DNA of 64,000 nucleotides from Flavobacteriales bacterium. GTDB taxonomy: Bacteria; Bacteroidota; Bacteroidia; UBA10329. The first letter of the stretch is position 1. Each line of letters starts with the position of its first letter. The DNA is taken from the NCBI GenBank assembly GCA_021741155.1, contig JAIOYP010000003.1:7950-71949 (forward strand), read 5' to 3'. A program made the position numbers and the translations under genes. Below, one piece after another: positions 17,789-34,883 of this stretch. The notes under the pieces are model-generated. The model had not been told where the DNA came from and made no database searches. It was given only the letters and a program-made list of their open reading frames with translations.

Positions 17789-18697
17789 TTATTCAACAAT
17801 CAGGTATGGCTTCAATTTGGTATAGGTATCTTCTTTAAGAATTTGAATTTTCTTGAGTTCTAGGAGTTTTTTGTACTTGCCGTGCTGTTGGCGATAATTG
17901 ACAATGGTCTTTGCGAGGTTGGGGTCGATGTATGGATGTTTGAGCAATTCTTGGTAATCTGCGGTGTTAACATTGATTCTCTTTCTTATAGTGGTGTCTA
18001 CGTGAACGGATTGGAGGATTGGCAGAATATGAGCGGAGTCTATTTTGTACAGTTCGAATAATTGATTCTTTGAAACGTATCCACCCAATTGCTCTCGATA
18101 TTTGAGAATGCGCTTGGCGTAGGATGGGCCAACTCCGTTGATTGTGACTAGCAGAGCTGAATCGGCAGTGTTCAACTCTACGATTGTCGGTTCATAGGTT
18201 GGTTTTTCCCATTTTGGATATTCTTCAAACTTCCGTTCTGCTCGTTCATCCGAAATTGGTTTGATGTCTATGAAAGGTTGAAGTTCTTTGTAGCGTTCGT
18301 CATTCACCATAAATAAATTCTTGATGTCTTCGGGCTTTCTGAATTTTGCTCCTTTACTTCTATACTTGAGAATGCTAGCGGTTTGTTTTGGGCTGAATCC
18401 GAGTGCTAGCCAGCCTGTACTGTCGAGTGTGTTTGGATCGAACTTGAAATGCTCGTAGGTTTTCGGAATCCATGGCTGTGGCGAGGCTTCTACTAGACTG
18501 ATTGAATCTATTTCTTCTTGAAATTGGACAATCGATGGTCCGTATTTCAATTGCATTTCTTCCCAATTGGCTTTCCAGAAAAAACGTTGGTAGAGATTGA
18601 ATACAATCAACGTAAATAGGAGAATTACCAGAACGATGATGGCGTTTCGCTCTGATCTATGGAATGAGAGATACTCTTTGAACCAAGTTGGCAGCAC
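17789..18697 (-). CDS. Helix-hairpin-helix (ComEA-family) DNA-binding membrane protein
   Basis: N-terminal TM segment; repeated FDPNT/LNTAD..L..INGVGP..A..I..YR modules. Confidence 0.85.
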   Translation of the reverse strand: MLPTWFKEYLSFHRSERNAIIVLVILLFTLIVFNLYQRFFWKANWEEMQLKYGPSIVQFQEEIDSISLVEASPQPWIPKTYEHFKFDPNTLDSTGWLALGFSPKQTASILKYRSKGAKFRKPEDIKNLFMVNDERYKELQPFIDIKPISDERAERKFEEYPKWEKPTYEPTIVELNTADSALLVTINGVGPSYAKRILKYREQLGGYVSKNQLFELYKIDSAHILPILQSVHVDTTIRKRINVNTADYQELLKHPYIDPNLAKTIVNYRQQHGKYKKLLELKKIQILKEDTYTKLKPYLIVE

Positions 18698-33866: not shown

Positions 33867-34883
33867 TTAGACCAGACCTCTATGCTTCATTCCCATCCAA
33901 CCTTGCAGGCCGCCTGTATGGATGGCGAGGATGGTGGTTCCCTTGAGTAAGGGCGTGTCGCGGCATGCCCCTACAGATTGCTTGTTCAGAATCATATCAT
34001 AGATGCCGAACATCATTTTGCCGGTATAAATGGGGTCGAGGGGAATACCGGTGCGTTCGGTGAAACCGTTGATGAAAGCCATGAGTTCGGGTTTCATCTT
34101 GGCGTAGCCTCCGAAATGGTAGTTGGTTGACAGTCCATAGTCCATGGTCGATGGCGGTCGTAAAGCAGATTCTCCCATTAGTCTTTCAACGTCTTCTTTG
34201 AGAAAGCCGCCACCTTTCAAGACAGGAAAGCCGATCAATCGCTGATCCCGTTTCAAGGTGAGGGCCAATCCGGCAAGGGTGGTTCCTGTTCCAGCCGCGC
34301 AGCACACAACATCAAAAGGTTCCTCCACCTCGGTCAAAATTTCGGCACAGCCGCGCACACCAAAGCCGTTGGCACCCCCTTCGGGAATGATGAAACAGCG
34401 ACCGAAACGATTTTTCAACTCACCCCCTGCTCCACTCGCGGAGCCTTCCTCCTCTCTTGCAAGAAAGGGGGTGTTTGCCTCTGGCAGATGGGGGTGAGTC
34501 AATTTCCGGTAATCCTCACGGGAAACAAACACCAACCGCATATCATTCTCCCTAGCAAATTGCAGGGTTGGGTTGCTGGGGTCGTCCTCTCCGCGGATAA
34601 TGCCGATGCTTTCCATCCCCGCCTTTTTGCAGGCATAGGCCGTGGCGGCAATATGGTTGCTATACGCCCCTCCGAAGGTGAGGATGGTATGATGGTTCTG
34701 CTGAACGGCCTCCGAAAGATTGTATTTCAGCTTGCGCCACTTGTTGCCGCTTATGTGTTCATGGATAAGGTCGTCCCGTTTGATGAGCAAACGCACTCCG
34801 GTGCCATCCAACAGCGGGTCTTTCACCTCCTGAACAGGCAATCCGGCAGGTCTGTACGATTTTGCGTAATCAATGGCATCCAT
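33867..34883 (-). CDS. PLP-dependent ACC deaminase / D-cysteine desulfhydrase family protein (carries in-frame repeat insertions)
   Basis: IKRDDL..SGNKWRKLKY, TFGGAYSNH, PEGGAN, GTGTTLAG, LDPIYTGK, IHTGGLQG. Confidence 0.92.
   Translation of the reverse strand: MDAIDYAKSYRPAGLPVQEVKDPLLDGTGVRLLIKRDDLIHEHISGNKWRKLKYNLSEAVQQNHHTILTFGGAYSNHIAATAYACKKAGMESIGIIRGEDDPSNPTLQFARENDMRLVFVSREDYRKLTHPHLPEANTPFLAREEEGSASGAGGELKNRFGRCFIIPEGGANGFGVRGCAEILTEVEEPFDVVCCAAGTGTTLAGLALTLKRDQRLIGFPVLKGGGFLKEDVERLMGESALRPPSTMDYGLSTNYHFGGYAKMKPELMAFINGFTERTGIPLDPIYTGKMMFGIYDMILNKQSVGACRDTPLLKGTTILAIHTGGLQGWMGMKHRGLV
33947..33974 (-). repeat. GTAG-type REP hairpin inside the CDS
   Basis: - strand GTAGGGGCATG-CCGCGA-CACGCCCTTAC, read in frame as VGACRDTPL. 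Confidence 0.75.
34126..34160. repeat. Heptamer tandem run inside the CDS
   Basis: gttgaca gtccata gtccatg gtcgatg gcggtcg; read as RPPSTMDYGLST on the - strand. Confidence 0.6.
34418..34499. repeat. 82-bp element with terminal inverted repeats inside the CDS
   Basis: actcacccc...ggggtgagt ends; internal hairpins cctctcttgcaagaaaggg and tgcc-tct-ggca. Confidence 0.8.

Follow-up and report, generated by a model that had tools for sequence, protein, structure and literature searches.

A translated 82-nucleotide palindromic unit in a pyridoxal phosphate enzyme gene of a Flavobacteriales bacterium, a probable solo copy of a small mobile element associated with DUF559 nuclease genes

The host gene and the palindromic unit within it

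Contig JAIOYP010000003.1 of an uncultured Flavobacteriales bacterium (assembly GCA_021741155.1) carries, in the stretch of 64,000 nucleotides (nt) that was analysed as a whole and is called the window here, a minus-strand gene for a pyridoxal phosphate (PLP)-dependent enzyme whose open reading frame (ORF) runs through an 82-nt palindromic unit. The features of this locus are given below with the evidence for each, where REP stands for a repetitive extragenic palindromic sequence.

33867-34883, minus strand: host gene, PLP-dependent enzyme of 338 amino acids (aa); open ORF, PLP lysine motif SGNKWRKL conserved
33947-33974: GTAG-type REP, read VGACRDTPL, in the C-terminal loop between MMFGIYDMI and GTTIL
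34411-34417, plus strand: flank motif TTTTTCA beside the canonical left arm; recurs at other copies in the genus
34418-34499, plus strand: complete palindromic unit, 82 nt; pattern match, fold, and alignment with five relatives
34418-34427, plus strand: 5′ terminal arm ACTCACCCCC; 10/10 complementary to 34490-34499
34429-34444, plus strand: hairpin 1, GCTCC-ACTCGC-GGAGC; fold
34448-34471, plus strand: inner hairpin that defines the family, CCTCCTCTCT-TGCA-AGAAAGGGGG; fold and arm complementarity
34473-34489, plus strand: hairpin 3, GTTTGCC-TCT-GGCAGAT, a variable module; fold
34490-34499, plus strand: 3′ terminal arm GGGGGTGAGT; 10/10 complementary to the 5′ arm

The host protein matched PF00291 with an E value of 2e-16 (60.5 bits against a cut-off of 35) and TIGR01275 with an E value of 2e-42 (145.7 bits, under the curated cut-off of 289.4), and PDB entry 1J0A aligned to it at an E value of 2e-32. 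On these alignments it is predicted to belong to the D-cysteine desulfhydrase/1-aminocyclopropane-1-carboxylate deaminase family with the PALP fold, a placement that does not imply an assignment at the level of substrate. The ORF is uninterrupted and the conserved residues are retained despite the palindromic repeat inside.

A first-pass annotation of the window had described at this place an 82-bp element with terminal inverted repeats (TIRs) and three internal hairpins. The exact pattern ACTCACCCC-N-GGGGTGAGT matched the window a single time, at 34418-34499, and matched none of 100 dinucleotide shuffles (0/100), and the predicted fold consisted of an outer stem and three hairpins with a free energy of -44.5 kcal/mol, in full agreement with that description. 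On the plus strand the unit reads ACTCACCCCC-T-GCTCCACTCGCGGAGC-CTT-CCTCCTCTCTTGCAAGAAAGGGGG-TGT-TTGCCTCTGGCAGA-T-GGGGGTGAGT, following the canonical order of the family, which is arm, hairpin 1, TT, inner hairpin, TG, hairpin 3 and arm; the canonical orientation of the window unit is thus the plus strand, i.e. antisense to the host gene. The nucleotides of the 5′ arm are identical in the orthologous units of two metagenomic genes, P0004 and P0012, and the same type of hairpin 1 occurs in another copy of this genome (C32) as well as in units of P0004, G015 and G021. The inner hairpin of the window copy is a decayed form of CCCCCTCTCT/AGAGAGGGGG with two mispairs against the consensus (one G-T and one C-A), and its purine arm mirrors the terminal arm on the 3′ side. 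Hairpin 3 shows compensatory differences from relatives, and three substitutions in a contig of metagenome run X3.

The flank motif reads TGAAAAA on the coding strand, within the codons Leu-Lys-Asn, and the junction reads TTG/TTT GAA in the native gene. Among about 17 copies at the level of the genus, TTTTCA abuts the canonical left arm in 4, including that of the window, and TTTTTA in 2 more; the motif was also seen at the outer side of a DUF559 gene cassette in L092. It may be part of the element or may reflect a target preference. Searches of Rfam, at E values up to 10 for the locus and at the gathering threshold for seven good copies, returned no family for the unit, and given this result the unit is not supported as a described structured RNA.

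The first-pass annotation had also given the in-frame translation correctly: in the minus-strand ORF the protein runs ...VSREDYRKL-THPHLPEANTPFLAREEEGSASGAGGE-LKNRFGRCFIIPEGG..., the local context being K-L-THPHLPEANTPFLAREEEGSASGAGGE-L-K-N-R. In the 102 homologs where both landmarks could be located, the spacing from YRx to FGR was 13 residues in 73, and it was 32 in the window protein, while alignment to 1J0A left an 18-residue gap at the position of the insert. The protein alignment that had been proposed for sizing the insert therefore returned a net gain of 19 residues. Since 82 is not divisible by 3, the exchange is best described at the DNA level, where 30 native nt (AGG AAA AAT GAG GAT GAT TTC ATT GAT GAA, read RKNEDDFIDE) are swapped for 87 nt, made up in the unit-bearing alleles of two codons (x-Leu) and 81 nt of the unit, for a net change of +57 nt or 19 codons. 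The element also turned up in two further metagenomes, on one contig without any difference and on another with 11 differences in 255 nt, and it is therefore not an assembly artefact; the metagenome run in which the sequence is complete came from lake water.

An AlphaFold2 model of the host protein (27 orthologs) had a mean predicted local distance difference test (pLDDT) score of 84.7 and a predicted template modelling score of 0.86. Residues 132-150, which follow helix 122-129 and precede helix 152-160, are exactly those with a pLDDT below 50, and with the remainder modelled confidently this indicates that the insert would form a disordered surface loop on an otherwise normal fold.

The unit had been set apart from the CCCCTCC family of repeats at first pass. 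BLAST found no similarity between it and the hutU elements of the CCCCTCC family, which upholds that separation and argues for a second, separate sequence family inserted in frame. By our reading of the sequences the two families share a feature of design, in that a C-tract block mirrors the adjacent hairpin arm in both.

Copies of the unit and neighbouring DUF559 genes

A search of the genome for other copies, as proposed at first pass, found a second copy with exact arms (C51:21982-22064, between lgt-like and suhB-like genes) and a third with slightly different arms (C32:~18448-18530), which was detected solely by its inner hairpin and has hairpin 1 and the inner hairpin loop in common with the window copy. 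Both of these copies lie outside long reading frames. Relatives hold copies as well, 25 units in 12 of 41 related genomes, compared with 0 for a reversed-pattern control. The units of the genus are modular, with constant arms and inner hairpin and two side hairpins taken from a small set, and a consensus fold of 6 of them contained 6 compensatory pairs. Between the C51 copy and a unit that a different species of the genus carries at G021:C11:30698, identity is 96.4% without any alignment of the flanks, while orthologous genes within the genus are ~68-75% identical at the nucleotide level. Near-identical units at unrelated loci, set against this low identity of orthologs, point to recent movement or transfer.

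The exact 10+10 pattern was then scanned over a collection of 185,579 species genomes and gave at least 118 loci, compared with ~17 expected by our own arithmetic under uniform base composition. The loci listed belong to Bacteroidota, Bacillota, Chloroflexota, Planctomycetota, Ignavibacteriota and other phyla, and a few are clearly chance matches, e.g. L025 and L091. The inner CCCCTCTC..GAGAGGGG hairpin, which was absent from the search pattern, occurred in 87 of the 125 units from other genomes among the matches listed. Most copies are intergenic, and the few in long open frames are two in a uvrA-like gene of L056 and those of L064, the window and G003. In L056:569-2582, from a Prevotellaceae metagenome-assembled genome (MAG), a DUF559 domain and a unit are fused in frame to the N-terminus of the uvrA-like protein, and a second unit lies in frame in the middle of the gene. 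Tandem arrays were observed at L038:5234-5725 of a Prolixibacteraceae MAG (four units ~135 nt apart) and at L095:1566-2004 of Anaerobacterium chartisolvens (three units 173 nt apart).

DUF559 proteins are Vsr-like PD-(D/E)xK nucleases and form a very large family of uncharacterised function. A search of open-access full text for DUF559 together with palindromic repeats returned only a superfamily classification paper. When the DUF559 protein of this genome was compared by tblastn with the 118 loci (822 kb), 10 of the 13 DUF559 matches among the loci listed were located at most 100 nt from a unit, a zone that takes up 4.3% of the DNA (binomial p 6e-12); this adjacency is far above chance. Over 22 genomes of the genus, unit count also correlated with DUF559 count (Spearman 0.67, p 6e-4). 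Two units in the same orientation bracket the DUF559 gene at L077, L052, L121 and G039:C47, and within the genus a DUF559 gene abuts a unit at G002:C31 and G001:C2. The G002 cassette, consisting of unit, nuclease gene and unit, is missing from the orthologous site in the present genome, where the flanking genes overlap at ATGA. No intergenic DNA is left at this junction, and therefore the whole block is present in one congener and absent from the other as a single piece.

In a number of relatives (G003, G012, G015, G021, G025, G029 and others) many DUF559 domains were found within open frames of 900-1900 aa, and from the length of these frames the domains appear to be embedded in frame in large host genes.

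Repeated colonisation of the host gene and its explanation

The first-pass annotation counted three repeat types in the host gene and regarded this as unusual. Two of the three are insertions, namely the present unit and the GTAG-type hairpin read VGACRDTPL. The third, a 'heptamer run' at 34126-34160 (RPPSTMDYGLST), is native: its length does not differ in orthologs, and the closest of them conserve most of it (RPPSTMDYELST, RPPSTINHQLIT), which rules it out as an inserted repeat. Nor is a mixture of repeat types out of the ordinary within the genus, where the loop after FVSREDYR is filled, depending on the species, by at least five kinds of hairpin repeat. Its fillings are the present unit, GTAG-type REPs (VGAYGxTPL), REPs read ETRLIAS, REPs read ETLHATS, and ETLHATS with intervening in-frame tandem 15-mers. 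Two further loops of the gene also carry repeats. In the C-terminal loop, related REPs (VGAYGxTPL) occur in several orthologs among the relatives (L143, P0002, P0004, P0006), and in a third loop a REP read PVRAYGRTP lies between GLALSL and LLGFP in L147, L149 and P0045. In the closest sequenced relative (G003/L142), whose protein is 78% identical, REPs occupy the loop after FVSREDYR, and a ACTCACCCC-family unit lies in the C-terminal loop of the same ortholog (G003:C201:18137-18215, read SPRHDRFGRPSLEREGKGAPKLDRGE). Longer PLP homologs proved to be N-terminal mis-calls or expansions of REPs and tandem repeats, and no full DUF559 cassette was found within the gene family among the best 120 homologs.

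In the sister lineage (L142:1501-2607, which is G003, with P0008 and P0002), the loop after FVSREDYR holds two GTAG REPs (GTAGAGACGTTGCATGCAACGTCTCTA), which are separated by tandem repeats of 15 nt that keep the frame (SEASV/SETSV, or EQTLA six times) and vary in copy number among close relatives. A relative from an activated-sludge metagenome (contig of run X4) has a GTAG REP, CATACGCCCCTAC, at the loop of the unit (at window position 34507), and therefore different samples hold different fillings.

Units of the present family have themselves struck the same codon more than once. The metagenomic orthologs P0004 (74% aa identity) and P0012 (72%) carry an 82-nt unit at a junction identical to that of the window gene and, as judged from the asymmetric flanks of the inner hairpin (T before CCCCC, TG after GGGGG), the P0012 unit is oriented like that of the window and the P0004 unit is inverted. 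The three units have different side hairpins, each matching different dispersed copies in the genus. Their arm nucleotides (ACT CAC CCC and GGG GGT GAG; ACTCACCCC, GGGGGTGAG) are identical, the preceding Leu codon is different in all three (TTG, CTG, TTA), and third positions elsewhere are 45-56% identical. In a tree with the loop masked, the three genes were placed apart, and the approximately unbiased (AU) test rejected their monophyly (p=0.017). P0012 shares 82.6% nt identity with P0051, which has the native loop, and ~70% with the window gene. The window gene and P0004 also share a run of 27 identical nt on the right side of the unit. This was weighed as a possible trace of a recombination tract and set aside, as it lies in conserved codons and is not significant by our own estimate. 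The simplest reading of these alignments would be that units arrived repeatedly and fairly recently at one codon, in either orientation.

The unit might specifically replace a pre-existing GTAG REP. The x-Leu-Thr left junction is shared at the first loop, which favors such a replacement, whereas, against it, at the C-terminal loop the unit-bearing allele retains native residues that are missing from REP-bearing alleles.

We believe that the 82-nt unit is probably a solo copy of a small mobile palindromic element, present in frame, for which a DUF559 nuclease would be the mobiliser. Such an element would have inverted arms of 10 bp at its termini, with one or two exchangeable hairpins and a conserved inner hairpin of G/C tracts whose purine arm mirrors the terminal arm, and its full-length form would be two units bracketing the gene for the DUF559 (Vsr-like PD-(D/E)xK) nuclease. 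The nuclease may act on the folded hairpin or cruciform ends, possibly on a triplex, and so drive the copying of units or cassettes to new sites, in which case solo units would be non-autonomous derivatives. The window unit would have entered a permissive surface loop of the PLP enzyme gene, bringing no stop codon, and would now be translated as ~27 disordered residues rather than spliced out; the insert probably has no role in the enzyme. Selection may let units survive solely in a few permissive loops of this kind. More tentatively, units resembling the BoxC/TMECO repeats of E. coli (compared below) could together with DUF559 nucleases make up an undescribed mobile class that spans phyla, in which the nuclease, on recognising a unit folded as a cruciform or triplex, would set off its copying by way of repair; the same permissive codon of a host gene could be struck repeatedly, with translated solo units remaining there. 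Since the arms are inverted copies of each other, such copying could go in either orientation.

A number of observations weigh against this explanation. In a loose search of this genome, allowing one mismatch per 8-nt arm with paired ends, the two exact copies alone were found, not above shuffled controls, and the family has few copies in this genome. At the junction, 30 nt have been replaced by 87 nt, which is not a clean insertion, and no target-site duplication of fixed length was found at the copies; possible duplications are TG/TTG at the window copy and TTA/TTG in P0012, with none at C51 or P0004. The same replacement in three lineages could have come from recombination, through exchange of short allele segments between species, and not from three transpositions. 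At ~90% of the sampled loci the units have no DUF559 gene nearby, as is also the case for the window copy itself, and the nuclease could therefore be a passenger or could only target the units. The correlation between unit count and DUF559 count treats the 22 genomes as unrelated. The only DUF559 gene of this genome (C30:11402-11719), situated between ABC-transporter permease and ATPase genes (C30:11300-11950), has inverted units of a different type on both flanks (AAATCCCCC, hairpin, CCCCCTTTG.AAAGGGGG), of which at least three solo copies lie near C61:8287, C67:103576 and C69:20825. A DUF559 gene flanked by the unit type of the window was not found in this assembly, estimated to be 94.7% complete, and the window copy is therefore probably stranded. 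Finally, we know of no DUF559 protein with an established nuclease activity, cut site or transposition intermediate.

One alternative is a single ancient insertion in the ancestor of the genus, kept by selection on DNA or RNA structure, with the patchy distribution and the flip arising from recombination of alleles and inversion between the 10-bp arms. It would explain why the replacement junction (x-Leu followed by THP..GGE) and the 82-nt length are the same in all three orthologs, why the arms were kept while third positions and the preceding Leu codon diverged, and why the hairpin differences are compensatory. We nevertheless consider it unlikely, because the three genes form no clade by the AU test and because P0051, close to P0012, has the full native loop, which could not be regenerated after a deletion. 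The side hairpins that match different dispersed copies also argue against a common origin at this site, and the two mispairs in the inner hairpin of the window copy indicate that no strict structural constraint operates.

Alternatively, the unit could be moved by another enzyme, such as a RAYT/IS200-like Y1 transposase or host recombination at cruciforms, with DUF559 genes hitch-hiking or homing in. This genome does encode a Y1_Tnp (IS200/RAYT-like) protein, by a single gene (C13:108003-108557, ~184 aa, domain match at C13:108084-108299). The GTAG-type REPs in the same loops of the host gene in relatives, the many units without a neighbouring DUF559 gene, and the known role of REPs as targets of insertion sequences (PMC3733652) would fit such a mechanism. 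At the flanks of the Y1_Tnp gene, however, the unit is absent and GTAG REPs are not visible, though REPs of this type exist in the genome. The unit has no GTAG or CGTC tag as REPs do, and DUF559 genes are bracketed on both sides by one unit type and are gained and lost together with it. Movement by another enzyme is thus an improbable account, about on a par with the ancient insertion. A palindrome that is not mobile, formed by local loop expansion or slippage or as an adaptive protein insertion, would agree with the variable loop length across the genus, but it is refuted by the same arms and inner hairpin at unrelated loci here, in the genus and in other phyla, and is further disfavored by a segment modelled as disordered whose sequence is set by DNA symmetry.

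With a mobile element as the preferred explanation, the locus offers a natural experiment, in which one repeat family occupies two loops of one gene and one codon has been hit in three non-sister lineages in both orientations, and in which cassette-bearing and empty sites coexist within one genus. Together with the adjacency of units and DUF559 genes, it provides a testable hypothesis on what moves these repeats. For annotation, the locus shows that added loops of low complexity in conserved enzymes of Bacteroidota can be selfish DNA rather than adaptive inserts, and that protein-length variation in the genus is largely repeat-driven.

Comparison with known repeat systems

Short palindromic repeats read in frame have been described as Rickettsia palindromic elements (RPEs; Ogata et al. 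2000, as cited in PMC3733652), and uvrA and uvrB are among the genes for which intragenic REPs have been reported (Di Nocera et al. 2013, PMC3733652). Like these, the present unit is a short palindromic in-frame repeat that leaves the host gene functional, is translated as loop residues, and is dispersed and mostly intergenic; the uvrA-like gene of L056 that holds units recalls the REPs reported in uvrA. It differs in belonging to another sequence family, in its composite structure of an outer stem and three hairpins, in its spread across phyla, and in being linked with DUF559, whereas those elements are linked with RAYT or with no gene. REPs are marked by a GTAG or CGTC tag (PMC3733652); the unit starts with ACTC and has 82 nt and four stems, in contrast to a tagged single hairpin of 20-40 bp. 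The REPIN/RAYT system (Bertels and Rainey 2011, PMC3116915) resembles it in that dispersed hairpin repeats flank a single-copy gene, but the enzyme here is of the PD-(D/E)xK type and not an HUH Y1 protein, and the repeat architecture is different.

Transposable elements of the miniature inverted-repeat type (MITEs), such as Correia, Nezha and ERIC (PMC3184786, PMC10969869), are likewise small, noncoding and multi-copy, with TIRs and longer gene-bearing relatives. With perfect 10-bp TIRs, a length of 82 nt (below ~300 bp) and no ORF of its own, the unit has the size and ends of a MITE. Unlike MITEs, its longer form is a whole unit, DUF559 gene and whole unit and not a transposase gene between TIRs, there is no consistent target duplication, and the associated protein is a Vsr-like nuclease, DUF559 not being a known transposase. 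Among the homing endonucleases with a Vsr fold, e.g. I-Bth0305I, a small Vsr-like nuclease gene acts as selfish DNA in or beside host genes. Here, unlike in those systems, there is no intron or intein, and the palindromic end units exist alone.

The BoxC/PIT/TMECO repeats have been known since the 1990s and, to our knowledge, they still have no established origin, partner enzyme or function. They share with the present unit a plan of three G/C-tract blocks, of which two pair as a hairpin (CCCTCTCCC/GGGAGAGGG in E. coli and CCCCCTCTCT/AGAGAGGGGG in the present family) and the third is GGGTGAGGG in E. coli and GGGGGTGAGT in the unit, as well as palindromic double forms and unstable surrounding loci. 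The E. coli TMECO consensus is CCCTCNCCC-N3-6-GGGNGAGGG-N3-GGGNGAGGG (Holder et al. 2015, PMC4666352). TMECOs formed a triplex in vitro, are described as invariably intergenic, unstable and without a known mobile partner, and number 23 in the 4.6-Mb chromosome of E. coli K-12 (PMC4666352). Laid antiparallel to the consensus purine arm AGAGAGGGGG, GGGGGTGAGT gave only G.G, A.A and T.A triads by our own reading (10/10), and against the window's own arm AGAAAGGGGG it gave 9/10 triads with one mismatch; the unit would thus have the potential for an intrastrand purine-motif triplex. In a further likeness to TMECO, the inner hairpin lies at most 6 nt from an arm in 71 of the 125 units from other genomes among the matches listed. 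In the window copy, unlike in TMECOs, extra hairpins part the blocks, and the copy is coding where TMECOs are reported as always intergenic. The TMECO consensus had 0 matches in this genome, and the window unit does not match it. In the stretch of E. coli K-12 examined (L161:3040-3840), ycjD is the only annotated DUF559 gene; its last codons form a CCCTCTCCC..GAGCGAGGG hairpin, and a canonical TMECO/BoxC lies ~190 nt downstream. A partial duplicate of the 3′ end of ycjD (GGAGACGGTGCTGGAGAATATTC) was also seen ~60 nt downstream of the gene.

A translated palindromic repeat is therefore in itself a known phenomenon, as in the Rickettsia RPEs and intragenic REPs. New in the present case are the architecture of the family and the range of phyla in which it occurs, the close link of its units with DUF559 nuclease genes, and the fact that one codon and two loops of the same enzyme have been colonised repeatedly and in either orientation.

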